Assembly (NCBI GenBank): GCA_002245135.1
Contig: NGBS01001187.1
Location: 1 to 64,000, forward strand
Reading direction: 5' to 3'
Origin: Proteromonas lacertae
Taxonomy: Eukaryota
DNA length: 64,000 nt
Position 1 is the stretch's first letter. Every line of letters starts with the position of its first letter. Both the position numbers and the translations under genes were made by a program. Positions 8,422-52,428 of the stretch are shown piece after piece. The notes below the pieces were generated by a model that was not told the DNA's origin, did not search any database, and saw only the letters and a program-made list of their open reading frames with translations.

Positions 8422-9547
8422 TTAACATTTCTTTACTGATAATAAAGTAATTGAATCATTTTCAGATACTAACTCAACAAATGGGTATAATGGGTATTGA
8501 ATGGATGTGAATATAGAATTATATTGTTTTCCATTTATAATATAATTCATATATCTATTTTTCAAATCAAATATAACTTCTAATACATCACCAGTAACCA
8601 ATGATGTACTGTAATTATTATTAGCTCCTGAACCATATCTTGTAATTGTATTTGTTTTAAAACCAATTGTGTGAGTATTACTTTGGTTATAAAGATTGTT
8701 TTCTACATAATTTTCAATTGTTGTTCCTCCAATTCTTATTTCCCCATAAGAATTAAATCGATTGATCTTAAATGTAAAATGATATTCTTCTCCACTATTC
8801 ATTACAGTGTTTAAATAACAATGCGAAACTGTTTCACTATCTTCATTCTTTGTGATTGTATAACCATCATGCAATATTTTTATCATTTTACTATAATAGT
8901 CTGATTGGAAATTAACAATTCTCACTGATAATGAAATTTTGGTGGTTTGTTTTCCAAGAACATTTTCACAAGTTACTTCATATTCTGTCTTTTCACATAA
9001 TGTTTCTGGTTCACCAGATATTATGCCACTGCATTTGTCAATTGATAATCCTGATGGTAAATTTGGTTCTATACTGTATTTACATCCTCTTGGAGTTTGG
9101 TTTGATGGAATTTCTACTTTTACTCCTTCGACATGAATAATATCTAACAAATTATTGTTATATGAGAAACTTGGTGGAGATGATAGTATATTTTCTACAT
9201 TAGAATTATCACCTTTTATTTCTTTAATTAAAGCAAAGTCTTCATAAACAAATGGTAAAGAACTGATATAGTTTGTGATTCTACTTCTTACATTTGAACT
9301 ATTCAAATATTCTTCATAGAATGTATAGATTCTAGCAATCAATTCACAACTACTATTGTAGTATATTATATGGAAATATTCATCAATCTTGTAATTATCA
9401 GAACAGATGTTATTATTAAAGAATATTGTTAATGCTTTGGCAGTTATCTGTTTCATATTATTTCTTTTTGTTGTTTCATGACATTCTGATAATTTCTTTA
9501 TCAAACAGTATAGTTTCTTTGTATCTTTCTCTATAATATAAACATTA

Positions 9548-9590
<43 letters not shown>

Positions 9591-10633
9591 ATAATCGATG
9601 TTTAATCTTATCATCAATACAAATGTTATTGCGATAATTAATGGATTGTTATTCTCTAACAATGTAGGAATAAGTTCATCAAATTCATTCAAATACAGAA
9701 AGTGAGTTGTTTCTTCTATGATATATAAATATAAAAATATAATATATACGATCAAGTTGTTCAATATAAACATCATTGAATATGATATCAGCTAAATACT
9801 TGTTCAAATTTTGATTCTTTGTTGGAGTAAAATACATTCTACTTATTTCTGGACTTTTGTTATTATAATTCAATAACTTTGTATCATTAATGATATAACT
9901 CTTTCTTATCATATTTAAATCATTTACATCCAATTCTTTCCAGTTAATGTAATTAAAAACATTTCTAAAACTATCCTGTAAGTCACTCTTTGTTAATACT
10001 TTTTCTTTTGACTTGACAGTATAGTAATAATTAAGAAGATTCTTTAACAAATGATGTTCATCTGCAATTATTAAGTTGGGGATTTTCAATATGTAAATTA
10101 TAGCATCTATCGTATTAGAAAGTATTCTGTTATCTTCTAATAAAATCCATCCATTGTATAAGATAAAATCATTTGTTACATTCATTATATCATTCATCGA
10201 ATTTTCTTGTAATTCTGGTAACATGTTAAGGAAATGATTGACGATCTCTATCGTCATATGATTCAATATGTAATTCTTACATATCTCATATAAATGAAGA
10301 TCTTGGTAACAAAAACACAAAACCATCAAATCACATATCGTATGCTCTTCTAAATCTATTATACCACGACCATAATAAGTCAATAATGCTTTGAATGCAT
10401 CAGCACTAACAAGAGAAGAAATTGGAATTTCAGAATCAGCTTTTGAGTCTTCAATTATTTTTCTCAATGTTTTATTATTCATTGAAATAATGTTTTTAAC
10501 TCCTTTAATTGTTTGATCTTCAACCAGGAAGGAAACATCAGAAAAACCACTTTCAACTAACTGTCCAATCACTCTATAAAATAAATTAAATGCAATTATA
10601 CCCAATACTGTCAGCAACTTGATAGAATTTCAT
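8422..10633 (-). CDS. BTB/POZ-BACK + putative Ig (He_PIG-like) + SPRY/B30.2-like protein, 4 exons
   Basis: ATG at 10633, a 28-nt intron, then GFSDVSFLVEDQ (BTB) and a BACK-like LIIADEHHLLKNLLNYY. YSIEPNLPSGLSIDKCSGIISGEP is the Ig motif; GDVLEVIFDLKNRYMNYIINGK...LYPFVEL is SPRY-like. Confidence 0.8.
9551..9584. repeat. (AT)17 microsatellite inside an intron of the BTB gene
   Basis: Perfect AT run directly after the minus-strand GT donor. Confidence 0.9.
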
Positions 10634-10927: not shown

Positions 10928-12445
10928 ATGTCACAAATTACTCAATTACAAATGTCTTTCCCATTCTTGACTGGATTGACAATTACTGATGAAATTAAAT
11001 CAGGATGTGGCCCAGCTGCACTGTTCCACAGTAATACCCATGAATTCGTCAGATTAATTCCCAGAATAGGAAATGATGATTTGATTCAATATCTTGAAGA
11101 TACTGTATTGAAAACAATATTTTCATTGAAATAGATTCCAAAAATGACAAGTTCATCCTATGCAATAAAACCGAAAATACATAAACCTTTAGTAATAAGT
11201 GGAGTTGAAATAGATTATTTTGTTTTACTCTCCAAACTCTATTCAAGTAATTTAGAAACAGAAATCTTATTAAGAAAGAAAGGCTTAGTTCCTTTCTCAG
11301 AAGATATAATACAAAAATATTTCTTCTGTATCTTAAATGGTTTAAAAGAATATCATCATCGAAATGTATGTCACGGAGGAATCTGTTTATCCTCAATCAT
11401 AATCGATGGCGATAATAATAAAGCTTTGTTAGATATGAATATAAGTAATGCAAAAGGTCGAGATTCAAATGGAGTATGTTATAAAGCGCCAGAACTGTAT
11501 GGTCGATGTGTAGAATATACTTTATCAAGTGATATTTGGAGTGTAGGAATCTTATTATATTATATGTGTTGTTTAAAACCACCATTCTATTCAATATTTG
11601 ATTTATTAAAATGGTATTATTCAAATGAAGAAGATGAAGTTGATTTATCAGAAATGGAAGGTAAATATTCATCTGAATTGTTGACAATAATAAGACAATG
11701 TTTAAGCAAGAAAGAAGAAGATCGTCCAACAATAAATGATTTATTATCTTCACAATATGTGATAGTTGTATTAGAAAGAGGTATTATTAAATAATTATAA
11801 TTGTTTTCATTATAATATTTATAGTATTAACAGGTATAAAATCATTAGATACAATCGTAATGTCTCATTCATATGAACAAGTAATACAAATACAGTTGTC
11901 TTGTATTTAATATTATTATTATTATTATTATGTTTTAATTAGTGGATGAGATAAGAGAAGGTGAAGGAAGTAGAGGTTTAGATAGAATAGCTACAAGATG
12001 TCCAAATCTATTGATATTAGTAATTGGAAGTATTATTTATAATTATTTAATTTTATATTTTTATTTATAATAGCTAAACAGAAAAAGAAAGATAAAGGCT
12101 TACAAAAAATAATTCGTAAATTGAGTATTATATTATTATTATAATTATAATTAGAAAGTGATTGTTTACCTTATGAAGATTCAAAGATAATTGCAGAATT
12201 ATTATTAAAATGTCCCAAATTAACTGAATTCTATGCAACGAGTATATTTAATATAAATAATTGATATTTTATATATAGATCTTGGTTTAGGTGAAAATGG
12301 AGTAAGTGTTTTGTGTGAAGCAGTTTTGAAATGTCCAAATATTACGACGTTTTTTATAGGATATAATGGAGCTGAAGATTCAACAAAAGCTCGATATGCT
12401 CGAATTTTATCAGAATCAAGAAAATGGAAAGAATTGTGGGTGTAA
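10928..12445 (+). CDS. Pseudokinase + C-terminal LRR protein
   Basis: Kinase fold (YKAPELYG, SDIWSVGILLYYMC, DRPTINDLL) with HRD replaced by HGG and DFG by DMN. Phase-1 exons then encode RI-like LRRs (RCPNLLILVI, KCPKLTEFYA, KCPNITTFFIG). TAA at 12443-12445. Confidence 0.8.
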
Positions 12446-12707
12446 ATATTGTAATATTTATTCATTTCTATGACATTTTTATTGTTGATTCTAAAAATAC
12501 ATTAAATACATTAATATGGTGTATTTGTCTATTTTGATTCTCCAAATACATAAAATACTATCACTAATATAGAAATACAATTATCTGATGAATATAAGCT
12601 GTAATCACTGATTATTTTTTATCACTTGAAATCAGTTGAAAAATTCAAAAAAATGTCGTTATTGATTTTATTGGTTGATTCAAAATATATCGTTACAAAA
12701 ATCAAAA

Positions 12708-14649
12708 ATGAAGTTTTATTTGTCATTGTTGAGTATAATAAATGTTATAATGTAATAGTAATATTCTTTTTATGTAGTGTGAGCTGTGGTCGAAGTAATT
12801 TGAGGTGTATGTAGTTCTATTTTTTATTTTTTAGATCTTGGAGAAGAGAGAGAAATGGCACAACCAGATGATGATTCCACAACTGCAGTTGAAAATACCA
12901 TAATTACATTTAAGGCAACAGCTGGTACATTTTACATAAAAGGAGAAGTAGCGGTTAGTTTTATATCTGAATCATCATTTAAGTTATATGAAGTCGGAAC
13001 AACAGGTACTAATACGGTTGAATATACTTTAATACCAAAAATTGTTTGTGATGGAACAAAGGATGGTGGTAAAACATGTGAAGGTACAACAACAGATGAT
13101 TGTGCTAAAATTAAATTTTCAATCAAAGAGAGTACTTTAACTGTTATTCAAAATTTATCTGGATATGAAGGTAATAGTCTTAAAGAATTAACTGCAGATA
13201 ATGAAATTAAAGAAGCAAATGATGCATTGAAAACTTATTCCAATGCAAGTAAATGTGTAAAAAAGCCTTCTGATGATAATTTTAATTTACCAGAAAATAC
13301 TCAAATCACATTTAAAATTGAAAATAAAGGTGTAGTTCATGTATTAAATACTGCAGCAGTAAGAATATCAGGAAGTGAATATACATATTATACTGTTACA
13401 AGAACAGAAGATAAATCTACAGGAACAAAATTAACATTTACACCTAAAAGCGAATGTTTAGGAAAATCTAATCCACAATCTTATTATACATGTCCATCAA
13501 CATCACCACAAACATGTGACAATATAAACGATGTAAAAGTGAAATATACATCAGATGAATCAATGACAATTGAATCACCTAGTGAAGGAATATACTGATT
13601 TAAAGAAAGATACATCACAAACAAATATTGAATTATATAAAAATAATGCTAATGCTAAATGTAATGTAAAACCTGTTCCAGATGCAGTTAATTTAAAGTA
13701 TGTGGAAGGTGAATATACAGTAATAATAACTAAAACTGCAGCATTGAAATACAAAACAAATGATAATATGGAATATACATATTATTCTACTGTTAAAAAA
13801 GTTGATGGTAGTTTAGGTGGTTCAAAATATACATTAACAGGTAATTATAAATGTGCAAATAAACAATCAACAACATGTACTTCAGCTGAAAAAGCAACAA
13901 CAGATTGTGATAAAATAGAATTAGAAGTTAATTATTATAAAGATAGTAAAGATGATAAAGAATATATAAAGATAGTAAAACTATCTGAAATATCTGCATC
14001 TCTTGCTGAAGAAGCTGATCTTACATTAGTAACACAAAGAGCAAATGACAAAGCAATTTGTAAAGGTGGAGATAGTGGAGGTGATAAAACTGATAATTCA
14101 TATCCAGAACCAATTGAAGATAATAAAGTGATAAAAAGAATTAAAGACGAGATAAATTATATACTAGCAAAAGATAAATATTATATTGTAAAAGAAAATA
14201 ATTATCAAATATCCTTTCCATTAACAAGAACTACTGAAGGTAATAATAATTTCACCACATTTCAAGGTTCTGATGATGAAACAAAACTAGTTAAATCTCA
14301 AAGTGGATATTATCTACAAGGATTTACAACTGAGATAAAGAATCTACATGAATGTATAGATACAGATAAGCCTTTTGTTTCAATTTCCTGGATGAATAAT
14401 AATTGTCATAATAAAACTGGAATAGTTGAGAAATTGATAGAAACAGTAGGTGATAATAGTAATGGAATTAATCTTAATTTGACTTTGAAGAATGGAACAA
14501 TTGAAGTTCATCACTACTTGCCAGATAATAAATTAGGAGTTTTTTTTGGTAATATAACAACTGAATTTACTCCTTCTGAGTTAGAAGATATTGGTTGGAG
14601 TGTAATACCTACCATATTATTCTCAGTAGTTATTTTATTATTATTATAG
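12708..14649 (+). CDS. Secreted, C-terminally anchored surface protein with three ~120-aa 4-Cys repeats (one frameshift near 13595)
   Basis: Spliced N-terminus MKFYLSLLIIFFLCSVSCGRSNLRYLGEEREMAQP is a signal peptide. Thr/Lys-rich repeats each carry 4 Cys. The protein ends EDIGWSVIPTILFSVVILLLL* (GPI- or TM-type tail). Confidence 0.75.
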
Positions 14650-14745
14650 ACAGTTGATTATTATAGTCATATAAAACAACATACTTATTATTTGTTTCTT
14701 TTTTGTTTTAATCTCATAATCAGATATATTTCTTTTGTATCTTAG

Positions 14746-15149
14746 ATGGTAATAATTTTACTACTTTTACAGTTGCTGAAGATGCTACACCTTATGAATC
14801 TGAAAGTGGTTATGTTAAGAAAGCATTTAATGAGCAAATACAAGAAGAATATCGATGTACTGCTCAAAATAAAGATTTCTTATCAATTTCTTGGTTTAAA
14901 AAGAATTGTGGTAATTATACAGGTGTTACTAATAAATTAATATCTGAATTAGATTTTGAAGGTATTTCGTGGAATTTGACATTAAAGAATGTGACTAATA
15001 TGGTTTGTTTTTATGAATCAGAAAATAAACCATTTGGAGAACATATTGGTAATATAACAGAAACTTCATTTGAAGCTAAATTTGAAGATGTTGGTTGGAT
15101 TATTATACCAACATTTTTATTTGCAATTATTCTAATTCTTTTATTTTAG
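14746..15149 (+). CDS. Second, paralogous terminal exon of the 12708 surface-protein gene (putative alternative last exon)
   Basis: Follows a T-rich tract and AG at 14744-45. Open frame (D)GNNFTTF...LSISWFKKNCGNYTG...WNLTLKN...GNITE...EDVGWIIIPTFLFAIILILLF* is collinear with 14240-14649 and has no start codon of its own. Confidence 0.75.
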
Positions 15150-19611: not shown

Positions 19612-21204
19612 ATGTCAACTATGTTCCTTCAGACAATTTCCAATGAAGAAGCGTTGGGAAGAATGGCTGTATTCTTATATAAAGATTTATTCTTATTTAG
19701 CATCTTAATATTGGAAATGTCACAAATAAAATAGATGATATAGAAGGTACACATCCAGAAATAAAAGAATATCGTTATACAAATAGACCAGATTTATATT
19801 ACACTGATGATATTGAAGGATCTCATCCAAGACAATTACATCATCCAATAAATGCAGAATCATATTTCTTAAGAACTGATGATATACCATACGCTCAATC
19901 AAAATGTCACAGTTTCACCACTAATAGACATATTAATCCAATAGATCCACATTATAAATTACCAAGTTGTAAAATCGCACCAGCTCCAGTTCCTAAATTC
20001 ATCAGAGACAATATACAAGTCGATGATATTGAAGGAACCAAACCAGGCAAACTCTATCCATATGAAAAGAGAGATATAATCAGTTGTGATGATATAGTAG
20101 GTACAAAACCCGGTTGGAAGCCAAGATACAAGCAATGGCTTGATCCTCCAAGAGATATATTGAATGTAAAAGATATAACAGGTTCAGAATGGAATACATC
20201 CCGACATGTCAATCCATTAGAGCCAAAATACAAAGTAGGAGATTTAGAAATAGCTGATGAACCTAGAGATGTCCATCCTCGTCCATTGCCTAAAGAAATC
20301 CAACCTGATTTAAGATATACAACTCACGACATTGATGGTTCAATAACTGACTGGAAACCAATGTATGATTTAGGAGGAATTACACTATCAAAACGTAAAG
20401 ATTTCAGAGAAACCAATTATGCACAAGATATCAAAGGAGCACAACATGATACGGTTCATTGGAAGTTGAGAACAAACCGTGTTGTTGATCCATTAGATCC
20501 TCAATATATTGGTTTAGATGGTGTTCCAATGGATGATGCTTTATATCGATGTCCAACTCCACCAAATCCTACATCAATACCTCCAGTGAGATCAACAGAA
20601 GCTGTGATTGCTGAAAAGGAATTTGAATTGAGGAATTTGTCACAAGAAATTAGAGAGATGAGACAAACTTTGAATAATACAATGAGTAACACTGGTTCTA
20701 ATGTAATTGGTAAACCACCAAGAGATCCAAGTATTCAACCTGTAACAATCAATAATAATAATGATAATAATAAAAATAATACCGTTTCATCTTTGAATAA
20801 TTCAATGAATAATAGTAACAGAAGTTCAAGAAATCAATCGAATAAAAGTTCAGGAAGAAGATCACAGACTGTTTCACCTAATATGAGTAGAAATTCTTCA
20901 CAAAATATAACACCTCAACAATTAACGCCTTTGAGATTATCAAATCCTGTAAGTCCTATTAATATTGAGAAAACTATGTCTTTGAGTCAAACTGTTTCGA
21001 ATATTGTGAGTGGTGATACTTCTAAACCTATTGTTATTTCACATAGATCGAATACTTCAAGTGTATGATTTATTATATTGTTTTATATTATTTAAATAGA
21101 AGAGACATACTCCTAAATGTGATATTGAATCTGTGAGAAGTTTACCAGAAACACCAATGTCACAAAAGAATTTGGGAAGTGGAACTAGAGATTTTCAAAT
21201 GTAA
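19612..21204 (+). CDS. Uncharacterised repeat protein with DDIEG-like and RxxNPLxPxY motifs, 3 exons
   Basis: Spliced ORF with IDDIEGTHP, TDDIEGSHP, VDDIEGTKP, CDDIVGTKP, HDIDGS and QDIKGA, plus RHINPIDPHY, RHVNPLEPKY and RVVDPLDPQY. A coiled coil and a terminal DIESVRSLP follow. Confidence 0.75.
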
Positions 21205-21320: not shown

Positions 21321-23929
21321 ATGGTTTTATTGAATTTAATTGATACAACGAACAATCTGAGAGGGTTGAGTGATGATTCAGGTATATATTATTTATTAGT
21401 TGTGATTTGTTGAATGATTTTATTTCTCTTCTTCTTAATTTTTTATTTTCTTTCTATTTATTTAAATCTATTATATTCATAGATGGATTTCCTCATGTGG
21501 TTTTGGAATATATTTTCTATTTCATTTTCATAAGCATCTCTTTTATTGGCTATTTTCTTTTCAAATGGCAATATAGAGCTGCTCTTAACCTCTGGTCCTC
21601 TTTAAACAATGAATTAAATGTAATGGCGCTATCATCAAAACCACTTTACGAATTAGCTTCAATTAAAGATGAAACACTAGAACAATTCTTCTCGTTTATA
21701 TCTCCTAATTCATCTCAATTAATAGATCTAACACCTACCGAGATGAACAGACCATTTCGGTATTGGATTAGCGATTGGCAAACTATACAGCTTGTTACAA
21801 AGGATATGTTAGGTCAAGGTATAGTGGTATGTTCGTGTAAAGGATTTTATATTAAAATTCAACAGATGGAAATCACAGAAAACCTATATCTTTGTAAATT
21901 TATGAAATGTTTTCATTCAACAGAGTTTAATCCAACAACATTGTCAGATTATCCATCCTTAAAATATGAAATACCATTTACAGATAATTACATCACAATC
22001 AACAAAGATAGTGGTCAAATCATTCAAATTAGTTCAGAAATAGTCAAGCAGCTTGAGTTACCAACAAACACCAGTACAGGTGTATCTTCTGTCATATCAA
22101 AACCGTTTGAAAACTACCTGTTAGGTGAATGTTTAAAAGATAATTTCATGAAAACTATCACTTATTTATATTCCTTAAACCATAATTATATTCGATCTTA
22201 TCTATTATTAACCAATAATTCAACCACTAATTTACGTAGAATACCATATATTGCTGATATTCGAATATATGATGAATCTTTAATGATTCATTTACATGAT
22301 TTAAGAATAGAATATGAAATGAATATAGAAAATCCATTAATCATTATCGATAATAATGACACTATATTATATGCAAATGATAAATGGAAAATATACAATA
22401 TAAACTCTAGTTTATTACTATCTCGTGAATTTAAGAGTTTTATTAAAGCTGAATTCCGTAATTTGTATAATCTATCAGGATTAATCGGAACATCAGGACA
22501 AATATTGAAATTACAATTTGATGAAGATGTTGTTTTTGATGCAAGTATTCATGCTCATTACTACGGATTTGAACAGAAAGATGAATGTGTTTTAACTAAT
22601 AGCAATAATAATAACAATAACAGTGAAATAAATGAAGTTAATAATATGAATGGAAATAATAATAATAATAATCATGCTGTAATAAATAATCGATTAAATA
22701 CTGAAATTAGGCAAAACTCTTTGGTTTTATTGGAAATATTACGTGTTGATACAATGAATACTGAATCTAGTTTTGAAGGAGCTTCTTTACTTCATGATAT
22801 TAGGAATAAAGTAAATAGTATTGCAATAGATGTTGATATAAGCAAACAAACATTAAAGCAACTAGAAAATGTAGAGAAAATGAGAGAAAATAATGTATTA
22901 GTTAGTTTAAAAGACACAATGCAAGAAATTGGTAGAAAGAATGCTGATTTAAGAGAGGATTTATCTCATCGATTAGATATAATTAAAAGTGCCAATAGTT
23001 CATCAGAATCTACATTTGTATCAGTCAATTTCTATAGAGAAATCTTTAAAATTGCTGCTAAGAATTGCCAAAGTGAAATGAATAATAAATGTGTAGAATT
23101 GAGTGAAAAATGTGATTCTATTTTAATGAATTCAAATACTTATGTTTTATGTGATAAATGTTATTTAAAAAGAGCATTTGAGAATTTATTGTTTAATGCT
23201 ATTAAATTTACACCTTATCACGGAACTATTACATTTTCAGCGTTATTAGATGAATCTAATGATAGTTATTATACCATAATTGTAAGAGTTAAAGATACTG
23301 GAACAGAACCAATTGATGAATCTCAATTTGAATCTGTTTTTGGTATTTTTACACAGACAAAGAATAGAAAGGGAGGTTATGGAATTGGATTATCGTTTGT
23401 GAGATTAGCTGCAGCAAGACATCATGGTAGTGTATGTGTTGAAAGTAGTAGTAAAAGTGGAACTTGTATAAAAATGACTTTAACTTTGAAAAAATCAAAT
23501 AAACCTGAAGATGTGAATTTGAATGAGAAATTTGTGGGTAAAAATGCATTAATTATTGATGATGCTCAAAGTAATATATTACTAATGAATAAAGTATTGG
23601 ATAAATTAAAGATAGTGAGTGAAGGAGCAAATGATTCAAAATCAGCATTAATGTTGATTAAACAGAAACATTATGATATTATATTTGTAGATAAAGTATA
23701 TATATACAATTATATAGTAATTATTATTTAGAATCTTGGAAATGAAGATGGTTGTGATGTAATTCGATCAATTGAAGATAAAAACCATTCAATTATCATA
23801 GGTAGAAGTGGAGATGAACAAGCAGCTATTTCATTCATGAATGCTGGCGCTGATTGTGTAATGTTGACAACTGAATCAAAAGATAGTTTAATTAGAAAAT
23901 TAAATCCATTAGTCAACAAAATTAATTAA
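21321..23929 (+). CDS. Membrane-anchored hybrid sensor histidine kinase with receiver domain
   Basis: H-box LLHDIRNKV, N-box ENLLFNAIKFT, G1 VKDTGT, F FGIFTQ, G2 GGYGIGLSFV. Receiver ALIIDDAQSN...YDIIFVDKNLGNEDG...AGADCVM. One N-terminal TM after splicing intron 21382-21482. Confidence 0.88.
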
Positions 23930-34816: not shown

Positions 34817-36388
34817 ATGGGAAACATCGTAGATATGAATATATGCGGTATAAATCAGTATTATGAGTCTGATGAAGACAAATTCAAATACTTTGTTAAA
34901 GGCAAAAGTATATTCGTTTATTTTATCTTTAGGATGTGATTCAAACTTGGATTTTATAATAAAATACTGGATCAAATGTGATCATAACCGATTATACTAT
35001 GCTGAAGATTTAATAGCACAAAATGAATGTAAGTCTTGCTTTTCTAATCTCATTAGATTTAATTGAGCAACTCGTGAAACTGTTCGTTTCTACAAGAAAC
35101 TGTAATATATTCAGACTTCTAGTAAGGTTAAGTGTAAAAAGTGATTCAATTAAACATATAATCACTCAGAACATAGGCTCACCTACTACACAGTTATATT
35201 TGAAGTTAATGAATGGAATAAAGGATTTATATACAATTGATCTCTCCAGTATACTAAATTAATATATTAATTTCTATGTTTTAATAGGTAAATGTCTTAA
35301 TTCAAAAGATCTTAATATTATTGGTGAAACAATGCAATGTACAGAGAATATAGAGACTTTAAAGATAGGAAGTAACAAATATGATACTGATGCTTTCAAA
35401 TTGTTTTGTAGAAGTCTATACTATTTACCACGTCTGCATATTTTATCAATAGAAGACAGTAATATCAATGATTCTGCATTTCAATATTTCTGTCGTTATT
35501 TGTTCTTTATTCCAGATTTGAGAGAATTATATATTGGTAAGAATAAAATAAGTGATAATGGATTATTGTGCTTTTCATATGTAATGAAAGGAATTCAGAA
35601 GTTGAAATTACTCAATATTGGATGTATACTATATTATTATTATTTATATTTTATTAGATAATAATCTAATAACTGAAAGAGGAATCAAATATATATCAAA
35701 CCAAATTGACAAAATTGATAAAATTGAATCACTGTCTTTTTCAGGTATAAAGATAAATATGTTTGGAGTTTATAATTTCTTTAATAAATTAAATCTTGTG
35801 AATAATAATATACAAGTATTATTTCTCAATAGTATATATATATATATTATTATTATATTTAATATATGTTTAGATTGTTATTTATGTGAAAATAAAAGTG
35901 TAAAATATCTGTCAAATCAACTATTTAAATTACCTCTCTTAACAGAATTAGAATTACAGTGTAATAAAATTGGTAAAGATGATATTAAAGATCTTGCAGA
36001 ATCACTAAAATGTTTTTCTAATTTGAAATTATTAGATTTATACTGCAACAAATTAAACTCTTATTGTGTTGAAGTATTATGTAATGTTGCATTTAAGAAT
36101 ATGCCTTTTTTAGAGTCTTTAAGTTTAGGAGAAAATAGGATATGTAAAAGTGGAGTTGTTATTTTAGGGGAGAGTTTGAAATATTTAACTAATTTAAAAG
36201 TATTAGATATACAATCAAATAATATACCTTTAAGTGGACTTGAATCGTTCTGTGATAAACTCTTTTATACTTCTAAATTAGAAGTTTTGGATTTAGGCAA
36301 TAATGATTTTAATGGAGATGGAATTGGTTGTATCAAACAGAGAATAGAAAATTCTTTAGGGAAAAAAAGAATTGAAGTGTATTTTTGA
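34817..36388 (+). CDS. RI-like leucine-rich-repeat protein with MGN N-terminus
   Basis: 28-aa LRRs (LRELYIGKNKISDNG, LESLSLGENRICKSG, LEVLDLGNNDFNGDG). All introns phase 1; exon 35288-35623 is 336 nt (4 x 84). Confidence 0.85.
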
Positions 36389-36482: not shown

Positions 36483-38655
36483 TTATCTCACATTCATTAA
36501 ATTATACAATAAATCTCTATCACGATGATTATAGGTTATTTTTAATGATGTTCTCTTTTTAAAGGATGTGTATTCTTCAGTTTCTTTAATACATTCTATA
36601 TATTAATAAAATATAGAAGTAATAAATACCTGAAATGATTAAATGTTGTAAAGATTTTATTCTATCGATTTTATTCAAAAGAAGATTGGTAGTCTTTTTA
36701 TCATATTTTATATTACTTAAGTCCAACTCATGCAGAGAAGAATATTCATCAAAATGTTCAGTATATTCTACCATACCATCATATGTTAGTTCATTACCTA
36801 TTATTATATTATTACAGCGTATTCCTATACCAGAAACGTCAATAAATTCAAGATTTGGCAATAGTTTAATATTTTTGATATATCCCCTGAATGAATCATC
36901 ATCTAATCCTGTAGCTATTTATGAATTAAAATGAATAAAAAGCTATACATCCCATTGATAGAGCTTTTAAACCATGCAATATACTCAATTTACGAAAAAA
37001 ATAAAGAATCGCTGATTTATGAATTGGATTAGCTATATATATTATTAATATATTCATGTAATAAAATACATCTTATATTCAATTCTTTCAAATCCTTCAA
37101 ATAATTAAATTTATCACTCAAATACATAATACCCTCATCACATGTATTACTACCTATAATTATTTTTAAATCTTTATTTCATACTTTCAATATCTAATAT
37201 CTGTAAATGTTGAATGACTTGAATATTATCGCAGATATACTTACATCCTGCATCAGATATTTTTTGACGACACAAATTCAACACATAATTCTTTCGAATA
37301 GATTGCAGCAAAATACTATCAATTCCATATTCTTTTAATGTACATTTTTCGAATTTTTCGTATAGATCAAACTCTTGAGACATTGTGTATTTATTATCAT
37401 ATGAATTATCTTCCCATAGCATATTTAAGCAGAAAAATAAAGCTCTACTATTTTTATATTTGATATAGTCACATATAACGGATTTCTTAAGAACTAATAA
37501 ATAATAACATATAATATAATATATACATTTATGATGTAAAATATCATTGATATTGTTTTTCTCAAATTTAAAATCATTACCTATAAATAAACACACATTA
37601 ACATCTTTCATAACTGATTGATTCATTTTTTGTTTAATTTTATTTATTTCACTTAAAGCTTCTTCAATATTAGGTCTACTGTATGGAAATTCTGATATTA
37701 ATTTCATCATTAATTTATAATAACTATGATTTTTATCCACTTCATTATTAATTCTTCCATTTAATACCATTAACTTTGCTTCATTCCTATTCTTACCAAT
37801 GAACAAATGTTTTCCAGTTATAATATAATGTAATAAACATCCCAAACTAAACATATCTGTTGAATGATTATATTCTTTACCACATAACATTTCTGGACTT
37901 TTATATTCATATAAAGTATCATTTTCATCATCATCATCTTCATAATTATTGATAATATATTTACAATAATCCGTCATTAAAAAACTTCCATTATTATTAT
38001 CAACAAGAATATTGGATGGTTTTATATTTCCATGATATATGTTGTATTTTGATAAATATTTTAAATTATTACAAATGTCAGTTATTATACTATAAACAAT
38101 ATCATTTTTATTAGATTCTGTGTCTTGTAGAAATGATGGAATTAATGTCTCAATTGAACCACATTCATAATATGGTATTATTAAATACATTCTATTTGAT
38201 TTGTCAAAATATTCACTCTTCATTGGTATAATTGACTGAATGTAGGTTGATACAATACTCACACACTCATTCTACAAATATATAAATATCATTATTATGC
38301 ATACATAAAATGATATGCTTTTATAGGATGATTTACATTCGATTGATTTTATAACTAATGGATTTTTATAATAAAACATATTAATCATCCAACTTCTTGA
38401 ATTTTTAGATTTTTTCAATTCTCTTAATATCTATATAAAGAATTTAACTAATTTATCTCATACTTTGAACTGTGAACTTCTAATTTCAATATTCTATAAT
38501 CAATTGTTAATATATTATTTTAATACATCTTTCATTTCATCCAATACTTCTAACACTCTCAAAATCCTTTTTTCTTCTTTTTTGTATTTATCACTTTCTA
38601 AATTTGTAAACAGGGAAGGTATAATTGAGGATTTCTTGATGTGACAATTTCCCAT
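36483..38655 (-). CDS. Pseudokinase-LRR protein with MGNC acylation motif
   Basis: Starts MGNCHIKK. Kinase has YHGNIKPSNILV (no catalytic Asp), TDYC in place of DFG, YKSPEML and TDMFSLGC. LRR exons of 84, 84, 84 and 168 nt follow. Confidence 0.85.
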
Positions 38656-38736: not shown

Positions 38737-39222
38737 ATGTTTTGCTTAAAATCTTTCATAGATGATGTTATACCGTCAATATTACCATCTGATGCAATAG
38801 TATTTTAGTTGAATTATTTTTGTAGATAAAAGAGAGAGTAGAAAAGAGTGTTAGTGAAGTAGGTTTAGTTGTAGAACATAAAAATGATATAAAGATGATG
38901 AAAATTGTAGATGTATCAGTGATAAAAGAAGAGAAGATGTTATATTATTTAGAAATGGTCACGTTTGCTGCAAATAGTAGTTTGTCCTTTTTCCTTCCTT
39001 CCAAAGTATTTCAAATTAATAATTATGGTGGATGTATGACAATAACAAGATATTATTATTTGAATGATTTAGAAGAGATACTTCCGAATAAATGCTTTAC
39101 AAGTGATGATATTGGAAATATAATATGTTTATTATATGATATATTGATGATATTGAGTGAAAATGAAATAGTGGTAAATAATCTGAAGAGTAGTAACGTA
39201 ATATATGAAGAGAACCATGTAA
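38737..39222 (+). pseudogene. 5' fragment of a pseudokinase(-LRR) gene, cut in subdomain VIb/VII
   Basis: Same first-intron position and sequence style as the 44037 gene (YYLNDLEEI vs [22 protein letters not shown] vs GNLKSSNVVYVEN). It then switches abruptly to Hsp70 sequence. Confidence 0.8.
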
Positions 39223-40588: not shown

Positions 40589-42724
40589 TTATTTCTCATA
40601 ATTGACTGATAATAATTCAACTGAAGTGTTTTGACTATATATTGCAGCATATGTATATAATGGAGAAGGTAAATCTTTAACAAGTAAAACAGGAGATGAA
40701 TTATTATGACTAATCCAAAATTCTCTTTTATTCATATCAACTATCACTTCATAAATTGAACCATCTTCATAATTATAGAAATTTGGATTTGAATTCACAA
40801 CTCTTCCAATATGACATAATGATGTAATATCTCTACTTTCACTACAAATTGCATAATAATTACATGTTGTTGATTGATCATAAATATCATATCCAGAATA
40901 TGTATTATTAGTTGATAATCCTAAATACATTTCATCATCTACACTTTTATTTTGATTATATCTATATTTGATATGATAAACTCCATTTTCCATTTTCAAA
41001 TTCAAATAACAATGATTCCAACCATAAAATGTATTTGTATTTGTTATTAATTTTCCATTATTTGAGATTGATATTCCTTCACTTTTGTTAGAACAATTAA
41101 ATTGTATTTGTGTTACTTTCAATGAGATTTTGAATTTCTTTTCACTTAGAATATTTTTACAGGTAATTTCATAATTATCCCCTTTCATTGGCTGTTCTAC
41201 TCTTCCATGAATTATTCCACTTTCTTTATCAATCATTAAACCATCAGGTAAAGATGGATTTATTGAAAATTCACATATATCTCCATCAAATGTTGGAATT
41301 ATTGAGATTTCATCATTTACCATAAATGAATATTTTGATTGAGGATATGAAAATGTGATGATTTCTTTTGTTAATATGTTTAAAATTTCTTCATTTCTTT
41401 TTATTTCTGATATTTCATCATTATCATCATCTACAATTTGATTTATATAGTTTATTAATATTTTCTTAGATTCATTTGAATAGAAATTATCATTATTCAA
41501 TAAATCATATAATATCTTCTTGCCTAACAGATTCTCTATTGTTAATAAGTTCTTCTCTTCATTTATAAACAAACATAAACATTTTATTATTCGATTACTT
41601 TCTTTACTTTTATATTCATTTATCAATTCACAAAATATATTTCTTTTTGTTTTACTTGAGATTTTCATGTCTTTCAATCCAATTCCACTGTCTATCATTA
41701 TTAATAAACCAATTTCTTTCATTCTTATGTCTTTATTATTCAATAACATTGAAATTGTATTCTCATTAATCAATACAAGTAAATCTTCTTCTTTGATATT
41801 ATCATCTTCACTTTTGTAATATTTTACTATGATTTCTTCTATTCTTTCATCTTTCATTTCTTCATTATTCAAACATATTGGATTTATTCTGTTTTTCATT
41901 TCCATTAAATAATCATTCATATCTATTGTTTTCAATTCATTTAAAATGGAAGGTTCTAGCTCATCTAATTCCACATTTTCTAGAAGAATTGATTTTAATA
42001 ATAATCTTTTAAATTCTTCATCTAATTCTTTCTTTTCTTCTTTTTCAATCTTCTTCTCTTCATTTCTATACCATCTCATTAATACTTTCAATAATCAATT
42101 CTCATTTTTTATTATCAGTTTTTCACTTTCTAATATCATCTTCAAATTTTCTATTCTCAACTTAAACAATAATTCTTCTATACAATTAGATAATTACATA
42201 TATATACCATTATTTAAGTATTTATAACTATTTTCTTTCAAGTATTCTTCACTTATCTTGATTAATTCATTAATCTCTTCTTTCTTAAATAAATCATATA
42301 AATCCAATATCTTCAATATCATTTCATCATATAAATGACTTTTTATATACTTCACACAATATTTCATTATTTCTTTGTCATTGTAGTAAATACTCATCAA
42401 TAAAACATTTATTACATTTTCATCTAATAATTCCATATAACCACCACTGTAAAACTTCTCCATCTCTATAAATCATTCTACACTACTTCCTTCACATAAA
42501 ACTAACACTCCTTCAAATTGTTCATCTTCTAATAACTTTTGAAATGTCTCATTTCCATTAATCAATATACATCTCATACTCTCTATTGTTTCTTCACCAA
42601 TTAACACTTTCAAATAACTCAATCCTTTTGAAACCATCTCTCTACATAACCTATACTCATCAAAATAATAATAGAAAATAATTTAATACCCAATATCACA
42701 AATTGAACTCTTTATCACCTTCAT
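40589..42724 (-). pseudogene. Second BTB-BACK-Ig-SPRY gene with two in-frame TGA codons
   Basis: ATG at 42724 with the same first-intron position as the 10633 paralog. TGA at 42473-42475 (VE*FIE) and 42095-42097 (NEN*LLK). FSINPSLPDGLMIDKESGIIHG is the Ig motif; a SPRY tail follows. Confidence 0.75.
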
Positions 42725-44036: not shown

Positions 44037-47000
44037 ATGAATTGCATTGATGAAATATTGTCACAATATGAAGTATTTAAGTTTATTTAATAATTTAGAT
44101 TAATAAAAGATCCGAAAAGAGTAGTTGTGAAGTAGATTTGGTTGTGAAAGATGAAGATACAATGAAAACAGTGAAAATCCTAAATATTACTGAAATAGAT
44201 GAACAGAGAGTATTAAAGTTTAGTGAAAATAACTCTTTACTCTTAGATTGTTGTTCAAATTTGGTATATCCAACCCAAATGCAGTTCTTCGGGTGTAATA
44301 CAATAGTAGTAGAGAGAAAATACTACGAGAATGATTTGGAAGAGATAATTCAAAGTCAAACCTTATCAAGTGATAGTATTAATAGTATAATATGTGGTTT
44401 GTGTAATATCCTGATAATAATGAATGAAAATGATGTAGTTGTTGGTAATCTGAAGAGCAGCAATGTAGTGTATGTGGAGAATCGTGATATAAAATTATGT
44501 GATATTGGTTTAAATACTTTGAGAAAAGAAGAAGAAATGACAATATATGATATATGCTTTAAAAGCCCTGAAGAATTGATTGGATTAGAATGTAACGAGA
44601 GAAGTGTAATTTGGTCAGTTGGATGTATATTATATGAAATAATCAACAAGAAATTACCATTTAATGAAGATAATAATATGAATAAAACAAAAGAGAATAT
44701 TGTGAGATGTAAAAACAGTTTAGATGAAAAATGTGATGATTTAATGAAAGAAATGATAAAAAGAATGTTGAAAGTGAAGAATGAAGATAGATTGAATTTA
44801 ATAGAGTTGAAGAAAGAGATGATAAAAATGAGTGAAATAAAGAGAGATGGAAATAATTATTTAATGATATATAAAGAAAGAAAAGAGATGTTAAATAATA
44901 ATGATTTTTTAATTATAGTTCTACCAATATTATTTCCATCAAAATATTATCTTGGAAGTCATAAATGGGAAGTTATTCGAGATGATTTAATAGAATTATA
45001 CACTTATGGAGGTAATGAAAGAATACTAGCAATATTATTGATGATAAAGTTATACAAAAAAGATGATAATGCTAAGGATATGCTTTTATTTAGAATTACT
45101 CATAAATGTAAAAAAGGAAAAAAAATTAATTTAGATAAACAGGTATTTAACATGTATCTTGATGATTATGATGAAGAAACAATTAGAATTAATTCAGATT
45201 GTTTTTGTATGTGTGAAAAAGGAATGAATTATTTGTTCAAAGTGTTAAAATACCTCGATGTAACAAAAATTGGTTTTGGTATAATTTTAAGTAATTGTTA
45301 TTCATTTAGATAATATTGAAATTCCACTGCAACTTCAATCGTTATTCGGATTGTGTTTTACACAATTAAGAAATCCAGAAGTATTAGATTTAATAGGATA
45401 TAATCTTACATATCGCTTTATTGAATCATTTGTTATTTCAATTCCATTTATGAAACTGAGATGTTTAGATATTGAATGTATTTGTTAAGTCTTTTTAATT
45501 AATTTACTCATAAATAGGTAATCCAATTGGTCCAAAAGGATTCAAATTATTACTTCCATATCTTCATTTGTTGTTAAATGGATATAATAAATTGAATCTT
45601 TGTATGATGAATTTAAATGATGAATCAATGATATTATTATCATCAGAATTACATAAATATCCAAATCTTGAGAAAATAGATATAACAGAAAACAAAAACA
45701 TTCATTCAAAAGGATTAAAAGCTTTATTCTCTAAATTACCTATTTCAAAGATAGAATTTGATTTTAATAGAAGTAAAGAATTGCTGCTAGACAAAGATAT
45801 TCCAGAATTAATCAAATATACCAAAGACTGTAGAAATGATTTTTATATGCCAAAATTAATTAGATTAATCACATATTATTATGTTTTAGATTTAAATGAT
45901 TCTGATATTGATGATGATATTTTCAAGTCCTTTATTAAATTAAGATCAAACGAATGTGGAGATATAAGAATATTAGATTTGAGTAGTATTATTCGATATT
46001 TTTCTATTATTTAGATAATAAATTAACATATAAAAGTATTGAAATACTAGTTAATAGTTTATCTTCATTTTCAAATCTTAAGGAACTTCAATTATATGGA
46101 AATGAGATAGGAGATGAAGGAATCAAAATACTATCTCCACATTTACATTTACTAAAAGATCATAATGAAAAAATGAATTGTTCAAGTATAATTCTTATTG
46201 TAATATGTAATAGATATGGGATTATCATCAATTGGATTAAAGTACTTATTAGATAGTTTAAAGAATATTCAAGGAAAGATAGAATTATTTGATATAAGTT
46301 ATAATTGTATTGATGCAGATGGAGTAGAATATTTGATGAATTATATGAAAGATAATAATATTGAGAAAATAATCATTCATGGTATCTATTTGCTTTTTAT
46401 TTTGTTTGTTTCAAATAGATAATCCAATTGGTAATAATGGATTTAAATTATTATTGAATAATTTGGATATTATAGAAGACAAAAATGATGAAATTAATAT
46501 GAATAATATCTTAATAGATGATAAAAGCGCAGTATTATTACCCAATAAGATATATAAAGTAAAAGGATATATTACTATCAACCTAAATGGAAATGATATT
46601 AGAATGAAAGGATTGAAAGCACTAGAAGAAAAATATTCTGTTTATGATAGAATTATAATTGAATCTATTCCAGCATATTATCTATTTGTTCAAATAAATA
46701 ATTCATTATGGACAAATGAAGAATTTGACTGCTATTTAAGTTATTGTTATAAACAGACGAAAAGGAGAGTATATAGAAATTATGATTTTTCAAGTATACA
46801 ATCCAATATATATAATATAATAGATTTAAATGTGACTGATTCTCATATTTTATTCATTAAACAGCTTAATTATAAAAAACTTGATTTATCAAACAACAGA
46901 ATTAGTAATAAAGGATTAAAAGAATTAATAGATTCTATACCAAAATATTCAGATAGATGTATATCTATATCAATTAATAATAATCCAATTGGAGATGAAG

Positions 47001-47432
47001 GGATAGAGATAATATGTAAAAATTTAGATAAATTTGTTAATAATTCGCCATTGAATGTTTCAAGTATTTTAATAACAATATATATTTAATATTTGAATAG
47101 ATATTGGAATGAGTGAAAAAGGATTGAAAATATTGATAGAAAGATTAAGAGATTATCAACCATTAAAAAAGATAGATATATCAGGATGGGATTTAAATGA
47201 TAGTGAGATGAGAATGATGAAAGAGAATAATAGATTATTTGAGAATTTAGACGAATTATCTATATCGTTGGAGAATAACATAAATAAATATGAATTAGAA
47301 GAATTCTTTGATGTATTTTGCTCTATTGGTAGAATAAAGATACTTGTGGCAAAAAAGAAAGTAAATATTGATTATAAAACACTGTCTTTTGTATTATTAT
47401 TACTTCTACTATTAATATATGTAATGTATTGA
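44037..47432 (+). CDS. Large pseudokinase-LRR protein (3' end approximate)
   Basis: Kinase with VVGNLKSSNV (no HRD), LCDIG, FKSPEEL and VIWSVGCILYE. Many RI-like LRRs (GNPIGPKG, GNEIGDEG, NNRISNKG, NNPIGDEG) in phase-1 exons, including 168, 171 and 168 nt. Confidence 0.85.
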
Positions 47433-49955: not shown

Positions 49956-51448
49956 ATAAAACAAAGAACAAAAATAAAATAATGTTTAAGATTTTATGGC
50001 TTTGTATTTTGTAATACATTATTATTTAACCAATAATCTCCTTTCTATTTAATAGAACAATAAAAAATATACTTCAGTTATATCTAATGCAGGACTCTGT
50101 GTTGATCCAGTGTTCAATATCATATGGACTGGCAATTCATAAGTAATTGTATGAACTTTCCATCCATCTTCACTTTCTTTCAATTCTTCACCAGGCCAAG
50201 CAGTTGTAGTTTCATTATTCCATATATGTCTATTAAATACATAATATAATAATTATTATTATACATATGTGTATATTCTTTACAATAAACATGAATTTCA
50301 TTTGATTCTTCACTTTCAGGTTTAACACTTTCTTCTACTTCCTCTTCTTTCTTCTTCAGCTACTATTCTTTCTTCTACTGCTCTTTTCTCTTCTTCTTGT
50401 CTCTTGGCTTCTTCAGCCTTTCGGGCTTGTTCTTCAGCTAATCTTCTAGCTTCTTCTTCAGCTTGTTTTTGTCTTTCTTCTTCTTTACGTTTTTCTTCAG
50501 CTTTTCTCTTATCTTCTACTAATTGTTTATCTTTATCATCATCTGGCTTTTTCTTCTCTTCTTTTGTTTTAATACTACTTTCTGTTTTTTTAATTTCTGT
50601 TTTTTTAGTTTCTTTTACTACAACATGAATAAAATATAAAACATACCTTTATTTTCATTTTTGTTATTAATTTTCTCTTTAGAATCATGCATTTCATGAG
50701 TACGATTTGTATTTTCATCTTTACTATGTCTTTTCAAAAAAAATAGTAATGCAGCTGCTGTTGCTATTGTTGCTGCTCCAGCAAGAATAATAAAAGAACT
50801 TTTGGCTAAATATTAGATATAATATTGATATACATGGCATTTAGAGGTAAAATAGAAAATGAGAATTTTCAAAAAATTATATTCGTTTCATAATTTGAAT
50901 ATTTAAAATAAAATCAAATAAAACAAAGAACAAAAATAAAATAATGTTTAAGATTTTATGGCTTTGTATTTTGTAATACATTATTATTTAACCAATAATC
51001 TCCTTTCTATTTAATAGAACAATAAAAAATATACTTCAGTTATATCTAATGCAGGACTCTGTGTTGATCCAGTGTTCAATATCATATGGACTGGCAATTC
51101 ATAAGTAATTGTATGAACTTTCCATCCATCTTCACTTTCTTTCAATTCTTCACCAGGCCAAGCAGTTGTAGTTTCATTATTCCATATATGTCTATTAAAT
51201 ACATAATATAATAATTATTATTATACATATGTGTATATTCTTTACAATAAACATGAATTTCATTTGATTCTTCACTTTCAGGTTTAACACTTTCTTCTAC
51301 TTCCTCTTTCTTTTCTTCTTCAGCTGCTATTCTTTCTTCTTCTGCTCTTTTCTCTTCTTCTTGTCTCTTGGCTTCTTCAGCCTTTCGGGCTTGTTCTTCA
51401 GCTAATCTTCTAGCTTCTTCTTCAGCTTGTTTTTGTCTTTCTTCTTCT
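49956..51448. repeat. ~530-nt near-identical direct repeat (49956-50484 and 50918-51448)
   Basis: Offset 962 nt (964 after the indel). Covers the 3' UTR, two introns, the CBM exons and the end of the stalk. Confidence 0.92.
49994..50840 (-). CDS. Signal-anchored protein with short E/K stalk and C-terminal CBM26-like starch-binding module (copy 1; 2-nt indel near 50345)
   Basis: Spliced MPSKSSFIILAGAATIATAAALLFFLKRHSK, then an E/K/R helix, then EIHVYCKEYTHIHIWNNETTTAWPGEELKESEDGWKVHTITYELPVHMILNTGSTQSPALDITEKGDYWL. Confidence 0.75.
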
Positions 51449-52428
51449 TCAGCTGTTTTTCGTTTTTCTTCTTCTTCAGTAGCTTTTCTCTTTTCTTCTT
51501 CTTCAGCTTGTTTTCGTTTCTTTCTTCTTCTTCAGTCTTTTCTTTTTCTTCTTCTTCAGCTTGTTTTTGTCTTTCTTCTTCTTCAGCTAGCTTTTCGTTT
51601 TTCTTCTTCTTCAGTAGCTTTTCTTTTTCTTCTTCTTTTTTCTTTTCTTCTTCTTCAGCTTTTCGTTTTTCTTCTTCTTTCTCTTTTCTTCTTCTTCAGC
51701 TTTTTTGTCTTTTCTTCTTCAGTAGCTTTTCGTTTTTCTTCTTCTTCAGTAGCTTTTCTCTTTTCTTCTTCTTCAGCTTGTTTTCGTTTCTCTTCTTCCT
51801 CTGCAGCTTTTCGTTTTTCTTCTTCCTTTCTCTTTTCTTCTTCTTCAGTAGCTTTTCGTTTTTCTTCTTCTTCAGTAGCTTTTCTCTTTTCTTCTTCTTC
51901 AGCTTGTTTTCGTTTCTCTTCTTCCTCTGCAGCTTTTCGTTTTTCTTCTTCCTTTCTCTTTTCTTCTTCTTCAGCTTGTTTTTGTCTTTCTTCTTCTTCA
52001 GCTGCTTTTCGTTTTTCTTCTTTTTCTTCTTTATTTTCTTTTTCTTTTTCTTTCCTTTCTACATCATCAATTACTTCTTTCACATCTTGCTTTTTAGAGT
52101 CTTCTTTTTTTTGTTTTTCTTCTTTCTCAAATAACATTTTAGCTTCTTTTGCTTTTCTAGCTTCTTCCAGCTTTTTATTTTCTTCTGCTTTACGTTTTTC
52201 TTCTACTGCTTTCTTCGTCATTTCACTTATTTTTGCTTTAAATTGAGCTCTTCTTTTTTTTTCTTTTTAATAATAGACAAATAGATATATACTAGCATTA
52301 TTTTCATAATCATCCTGTTTTCTCAGAAAATATATGAAGGCAGCTGATGTCACTATTGCAGCTGCACCAGCAAGTAAAATTGTTACTTTATTTGCTATAA
52401 ATAAATAAATAAGAATTGTACAAGGCAT
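50956..52428 (-). CDS. Signal-anchored protein with long EEEEKRK stalk and C-terminal CBM26-like module (copy 2; indels in repeat tract)
   Basis: Spliced MPSNKVTILLAGAAAIVTSAAFIYFLRKQ, roughly 300 aa of charged helix, then the same CBM26-like domain. TAA at 50956-50958. Confidence 0.78.
51440..52030 (-). repeat. Coding minisatellite: 27-nt units (KRK[A/Q][A/T]EEEE) with a 126-nt higher-order repeat
   Basis: The distinctive CTGCAGC marker recurs at 51801 and 51927. Confidence 0.85.

Follow-up and report, generated by a model that had tools for sequence, protein, structure and literature searches.

Do the LRR exons in this stretch of DNA act as cassettes that are exchanged to diversify receptors, or are they the relic of an ancient repeat duplication? 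A sequence-only reading of the window (i.e., the whole 64-kb stretch analyzed here) had described LRR exons of 84, 168, 336, 171, and 87 nt with phase 1 flanking introns at one shared position after the β-strand, had likened them to the LRR exons of vertebrate NOD/NLR genes, and had proposed that any cassette could be skipped, duplicated, or swapped in frame, which would suit receptor diversification; an ancient relic was its fallback. We consider it likely that genes A to D, the four LRR genes of the window, descend from an old duplication of a repeat together with its intron, probably thinned by intron loss, within a lineage-specific pseudokinase-LRR family, and that no active mix-and-match of exons takes place.

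LRR genes of the window

The window has a GC content of 26.8%, and its genes are densely packed. A self-trained Viterbi gene finder without any term for phase or LRRs predicted 35 genes, four of them with LRRs (genes A, B, C, and D; Table 1); this finder was not wholly blind, as LRR regions supplied 8 of its 11 seed introns. The predicted introns were short (median of 33 nt), with GTAT at the start of 103 and TAG at the end of 102 of the 113. The 31 predicted non-LRR genes contained 85 introns, which were distributed over phases 0, 1, and 2 as 40, 21, and 24.

The best named close match to the phosphate carrier encoded in the window came from Blastocystis sp. Blastoise (64%), and a one-gene tree of 54 rows placed the window as a long branch beside the clade of the Blastoise protein with support values (92/90) that lie below firm support. 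In its low GC, its introns of varying length, and its stop codons, which are encoded, the window also resembles the tortoise isolates of Lind 2025. The Blastocystis 3′ motif occurred eight times in the window, and no occurrence was close to any predicted gene end. We tentatively regard the host as Blastocystis-like.

Table 1. Members of the pseudokinase-LRR family in the window and their LRR exons
Feature	Position	Strand	Description
Gene A	36483..38655	-	Predicted pseudokinase, linker, and six RI-type LRRs; 624 codons, 10 exons
Gene A LRR exon	37070..37153	-	84 nt, phase 1-1, one LRR
Gene A LRR exon	36949..37032	-	84 nt, phase 1-1, one LRR
Gene A LRR exon	36831..36914	-	84 nt, phase 1-1, one LRR
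Gene A LRR exon	36630..36797	-	168 nt, phase 1-1, two LRRs, intron-free between them
Gene B	34817..36388	+	12 RI-type LRRs, no kinase, Met-Gly start; intron at 3 of 12 strands
Gene B LRR exons	35288-35623 (336 nt), 35658-35831 (174 nt), 35874-36388	+	
Gene C	44037..47432	+	Predicted pseudokinase, linker, and ~20 LRRs
Gene C LRR exons		+	168, 468, 171, 168, 375, and 240 nt
Gene D	10928..12445	+	Predicted NEK-like pseudokinase, ~5 degenerate 29-aa LRRs
Gene D LRR exons	11943-12029, 12155-12241	+	87 nt each; half-repeat exon 12074-12124 between them
Truncated fifth family member	38737..39211	+	Kinase N-lobe, 41% identical to gene C

The repeats belong to the RI-like class of LRRs, with a spacing of 28-29 residues, an LxxLxLxxN strand followed by a helix, assignment to Pfam LRR_6, and matches to ribonuclease inhibitor and NOD2-like proteins (E values down to 2.5e-13). 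The last exon of gene B resembled NOD2-like, ribonuclease inhibitor, and LRRC34 chains, and a sequence search with this exon returned generic LRR proteins; a single-sequence AlphaFold model of the same exon had a mean pLDDT of 39 and was set aside. The Met-Gly-Asn-Cys N-terminus of gene A is a predicted lipid anchor, as is the Met-Gly start of gene B.

Phase and register of the LRR introns

The ten LRR exons named in the sequence-only reading all had the lengths given there, were preceded by AG and followed by GT, and contained one open frame whose first two bases complete a split codon, which makes them phase 1-1; the gene finder recovered the same ten. The claim that the flanking introns are phase 1 extended to every one of the 19 LRR-region introns in genes A to D, compared to 21 of 85 introns elsewhere (Fisher p ~4e-10, although introns with common ancestry are not independent), and the internal LRR exons were phase 1-1 and frame-preserving in 15 of 15 cases. 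According to a register profile built solely from 75 outside repeats, codon 8 of LxxLxLxxN, the one preceding Asn, holds 14 of the 19 introns; when introns were placed at random in 2000 trials, the biggest pile-up at one codon was 4. Hand curation, in which degenerate repeats were re-registered, brought 18 of the 19 into register; the exception comes after the half-repeat exon of gene D. This exon (51 nt, phase 1-1) codes for just the helix half of a repeat and may be a decayed cassette or may be skipped within a 125-nt intron.

The cassette pattern recurs in all four genes as proposed, but it is less regular than the 84-nt unit suggests: of the 15 internal LRR exons, just 5 hold a single repeat, and several LRR exons (51, 240, 375, and 468 nt) are no multiple of 84. 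Compared to a strict one-repeat-per-exon gene, the single phase and single position are present, whereas an intron at every repeat is not, because hand curation assigned introns to 18 of 43 strands (gene A, 5 of 6; gene B, 3 of 12; gene C, 7 of 20; gene D, 3 of 5). At two intron-free junctions of gene B, 35745 and 35961 (+), a donor-like GT is located exactly at the register site, and the GT at 35745 used with the acceptor at 35874 would remove one repeat in frame.

The LRR introns are 28 to 44 nt long. One rival reading is that short AT-rich stretches had been miscalled as introns. Three of the 19 (36798-36830, 35832-35873, and 46794-46823) are in frame and stop-free and so are not demanded by the frame, and the LRR regions had contributed most of the seed introns, both of which would favor an artefact. 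Intron 36798-36830 (33 nt), which follows exon 36831..36914, lacks an in-frame stop, and its call therefore rests on splice signals and register. On the other side, the remaining 16 introns are required by the frame, as retention leads to an early stop, and the repeats regain their 28-residue spacing once the introns are removed. In addition, four of the seven LRR introns of gene C (46186-46213, 46382-46418, 46794-46823, and 47064-47100) are missing from contigs of relatives, which comprise two sets from one study, are RNA by guess, and are mostly <90% identical (share of 0.06); these sets do not cover the LRR exons of gene A and are uninformative there. We give miscalling only the faintest chance, and the phase and register pattern is real and far above chance.

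Age of the repeats

Compared in fixed register, the 34 repeat units of the 64 kb examined (561 pairs) shared a mean of 17% aa identity, with maxima of 52% aa and 63% nt; repeat pairs showed 41% nt identity versus 32% with shuffled codons. The three 84-nt exons of gene A were mutually 26, 11, and 7% identical, and no near-identical LRR exons were detected within or between genes A to D among the 561 pairs. Spare or antisense LRR exons were sought by a six-frame scan, which is blind to intron-split motifs and not exhaustive; it yielded nine motif matches, eight in LRR coding exons and the ninth antisense inside the kinase exon of gene C. Introns of 28-44 nt leave no room for a spare 84-nt exon.

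Gene C contains an old internal duplication (aa 460-694 versus 729-955, about 235-270 residues, 30% identical) with an alignment score of 222, compared to a shuffle maximum of 80, and its exons 45518 and 46419 are duplicates. The aligned part of the duplication includes four in-register introns, two common to both copies and two present in one copy only, which is the pattern expected from intron loss. The simplest reading is an intron-richer ancestor followed by one loss per copy, with separate gains as the rival; two copies alone cannot polarize loss versus gain.

Relatives of gene C

A search with the kinase exon of gene C against 1.84 billion representatives identified relatives at 30-57% identity. 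When full-length members of greater size (743-2120 aa) were sought with a profile, just four kinases came up, which looked unrelated, and an ESM Atlas search with the gene C linker gave no usable match. P0150 (41%) and P0138 (33%) were colinear with gene C through its first two-repeat exon, in a check that reached as far as repeat two in C-type genes. Judging from the tails of their open reading frames, these two relatives appear to run into introns at both of the corresponding gene C sites, and P0135 (50%) appears to do so at the first. Six other relatives stop near one point in the linker at which gene C, P0135, and P0138 continue, which suggests a linker intron in some members only. In a comparison of 14 of the 15 members of the P0138 cluster, which are near-identical, variable positions numbered 2 of 55 in the LRR exon and 16 of 325 in the kinase plus linker. 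The repeats themselves have diverged too far for dN/dS; by this protein-level proxy for one exon, the first LRR exon is not more variable than the kinase.

The two sets of relatives' contigs placed 67 and 23 contigs over the gene C region, again mostly at <90% identity. Such a pile-up means that a relative has many members of the family, and younger subfamilies may differ in behavior. One low-depth contig of a relative joins a 45310-type exon directly to a 46419-type exon, which has the shape of a three-exon skip, and another contig turns back to 45607 after 46455; since 45518 and 46419 are duplicate exons, both odd joints fit paralogs equally well.

Relic or diversification

A reading in which transcripts leave out exons, or genes exchange them, and a binding surface is varied in this way gains from the uniform 1-1 phase of the internal LRR exons, from which in-frame skipping, duplication, or swapping does follow as had been stated. 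The two odd joints and the many paralog-like contigs in a relative also point this way, and there are published precedents, proposed for the brown-algal ROCO and Tetrahymena LRR genes. We nevertheless judge it decidedly unlikely for genes A to D. Near-identical exons were not detected in or between these genes, nor did the six-frame scan reveal the spare or antisense exons that are a hallmark in Ectocarpus, and 25 of the 43 strands are intron-free. Furthermore, the first LRR exon holds its place in distant relatives, and among close relatives it is not hypervariable, and the LRR-kinases of Ectocarpus own repeat exons, yet no shuffling is described for them. Across eukaryotes exon skipping accompanies long flanking introns, with Bigelowiella, Klebsormidium, and Ectocarpus as exceptions in which skipping occurs with short introns (Grau-Bove 2018). 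The receptor diversification of the sequence-only reading thus found no support, given the old repeats, the mostly intron-free junctions, introns too short for spare exons, and an exon order that is kept in distant relatives, and the fallback of that reading, a relic of ancient repeat duplication, provided the best fit.

According to the relic reading, one 28-residue repeat and its intron would have been copied in tandem to generate an ancestral array, which would then have been passed on as genes and blocks duplicated, with intron loss likely thinning it. Splicing would be constitutive, with recognition across the short introns, and each exon would code for the Asn loop, the helix, and the following β-strand. 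The products would be cytoplasmic pseudokinase-LRR scaffolds or sensors, with those of genes A and B lipid-anchored at the N-terminus, and the diversity of the family would stem from gene birth and death together with point changes rather than from exon choice.

Some observations run counter to the relic reading, namely the introns that gene A still bears at nearly all of its strands, the two odd contig joints, and the large family in a relative. The truncated fifth copy counts in favor of the relic reading. Its kinase N-lobe ends at ~39211, where it abuts, out of frame, an Hsp70 (to 40057, +) without the first ~350 residues, and the Hsp70 contigs of relatives carry on with different sequence upstream of 39211. 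This junction is a sign either of gene birth and death through rearrangement or of an assembly join.

A predicted pseudokinase family

Pfam detected kinase folds in genes A, C, and D; for gene A the Pkinase match had an E value of 2e-24 and Asn replaces the catalytic Asp, and the closest solved relatives of gene D were NEK2 and NEK7. The catalytic Asp was replaced by Asn, Ser, or Gly in all 13 sequences that cover the loop (three of the 16 aligned rows do not), and the DFG motif was degenerate. From these losses, A, C, and D are predicted to be pseudokinases, and by analogy the pseudokinase-LRR proteins may serve as scaffolds or sensors.

Lineage-specific kinase folds without catalytic residues are found in the Giardia NEK pseudokinase-ankyrin expansion and in plant ZED1/ZRK. 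Like genes A, C, and D, these link dead kinase folds to repeat domains; their repeat type and partners are unlike those of genes A to D. We found no publication on pseudokinase-LRR genes in Blastocystis or on the codon-8, phase 1 register in a search that covered subscription papers thinly. The main text of Gentekaki 2017 contains neither "leucine" nor "LRR" and the text of Lind 2025 neither "leucine" nor "kinase"; the figures or supplements of both may list such families. The repeat-per-exon layout is of a known kind; less has been described of the pseudokinase-LRR family, which is apparently lineage-specific.

The same register in metagenome loci

A DNA pattern combining an intron with a repeat start matched 35 metagenome loci. 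The pattern itself fixes one acceptor per locus, so independent evidence comes from the remaining junctions only. In-register LRR exons were present at three loci (L008, L031, and L035), and 31 loci had no LRR exon. L012 is an intron-free LRR cluster that matched the pattern by chance, and L027 contained one chance regex match. The kinase exon of gene C had no relative among 54 pattern matches.

Locus L008, 4039-7548 (+), is an AT-rich eukaryote LRR-ROCO gene (Roc E value of 8e-10) with 28-residue LRRs and 84-nt phase 1 exons, eight of which are in the register of the window; the scan found three in-register exons in each of L031 and L035. Locus L035, 1-680 (-), comprises tandem 84-nt LRR exons and introns with 85-97% nt identity over overlapping units, and its array of three exons shows 85% aa and 92% nt identity. 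These identities mark L035 as an array in which exons were duplicated together with their introns very recently, in the register of the window. The donors and GC of the three loci are unlike those of the window, so they probably represent other lineages.

The recurrence of the register at these loci, with other intron styles and GC, is what would be expected if introns had been gained singly in several lineages at a favored proto-splice site before Asn. The discordant introns in the duplicate copies of gene C fit such gains as well, and at the intron-free junctions AG precedes the site in 5 of 24 and GT follows it in 3 of 24. At the intron-bearing junctions, however, AG precedes in only 1 of 18 and GT follows in 4 of 18, and L035 copies exon and intron as a unit, a direct route to the pattern. 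We regard independent gain as quite unlikely. A broader reading, still unlikely in our estimate, would make the 84-nt exon with its phase 1 border before Asn an ancient LRR block of distant protists (the window, L008, L031, and L035), separate from the NLR block and joined here to expanded, undescribed intracellular dead-kinase sensors whose younger members, at other places in the genome, would still be swapping exons.

Comparison with known LRR exon systems

The LRR exons of vertebrate NOD/NLRC genes are 84 nt and those of NLRP/RNH1 genes are 171 nt (Hoss et al. 2019, PMC6642158), so the exon lengths in the NOD/NLR analogy were correct. Vertebrate NLR/RNH1 genes and genes A to D have in common RI-type repeats of 28/29 residues, frame-preserving exons of 84/168/171 nt, and a fixed exon border, and genes A to D match NOD2-like and ribonuclease inhibitor chains in sequence. 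According to PMC6642158, the NLR border lies inside the β-sheet, whereas the border in genes A to D comes after the strand, in the codon preceding Asn; this unlike position would argue for a separate origin. Unlike vertebrate NLRs, genes A to D have no NACHT, an N-terminal pseudokinase, introns of 28-44 nt, and mostly intron-free junctions. NLRs carry NACHT or NB-ARC ahead of their LRRs; Pfam instead identified a kinase in genes A, C, and D and, in the scanned parts of gene B, LRRs alone, with ~110 aa preceding them. An origin by exon duplication was proposed for RNH1 (Haigis 2002 as cited in PMC8922048).

The nearest match in behavior is provided by the LRR-kinases of the stramenopile Ectocarpus, which carry one LRR per exon and for whose repeat exons the text of Zambounis et al. 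2012 (PMC3341825) describes no sign of shuffling; the Ectocarpus exons are 72 nt in other registers, compared to 84 nt and phase 1 in genes A to D. In the ROCO loci of Ectocarpus, long introns harbor spare and antisense exons, and skipping occurs (PMC3341825), and brown-algal ROCO exons are 72 bp (24 residues) and phase 2 (Teng et al. 2024, PMC11378527). In Tetrahymena, LRR genes possess tens of thousands of 90-bp phase 2 exons, near-identical exon copies occur in different genes, and some LRR arrays are fused to protein kinases (Xiong et al. 2019, PMC6564038). Tetrahymena and genes A to D both have protist LRR arrays of uniform phase, the Tetrahymena arrays with one exon length; the near-identical exons of Tetrahymena contrast with the low maximum aa identity and the incomplete array in genes A to D. 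Neither near-identical dispersed exons nor spare, broken, or antisense exons, which mark the shuffling arrays of Ectocarpus ROCO and Tetrahymena group III, were found in the 64 kb examined.

For the repeat-per-exon LRR layout, which is already known, the window supplies another lineage and another intron register. It captures that layout in decay and so contrasts usefully with brown algae and ciliates, whose arrays are actively shuffling. Shuffling among younger members of the family, if it takes place, would give a unicellular protist of the gut type a receptor repertoire.

Other genes of the window

Two genes on the minus strand, 8422-10633 and 40589-42463, encode proteins that combine an Ig-like He_PIG domain with an end that is SPRY or SPRY-like; the former also has a BTB domain in front. 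Such genes adjoin both LRR clusters, and they possibly represent a second expanded family retained in the same regions. A hybrid histidine kinase with a receiver domain is encoded at 21321-23929 (+). The genes at 49994-50840 and 51655-52428 (-) are a tandem paralog pair with near-identical, anchor-like N-terminal starts and charged, repetitive tails. The gene at 12653-15149 (+) encodes a repetitive Cys-containing protein without a Pfam match, perhaps a surface protein; toward its end, the long exon of this gene codes for a hydrophobic stretch. The product of 19621-21204 (+), likewise without a Pfam match, contains repeated short acidic Gly motifs.
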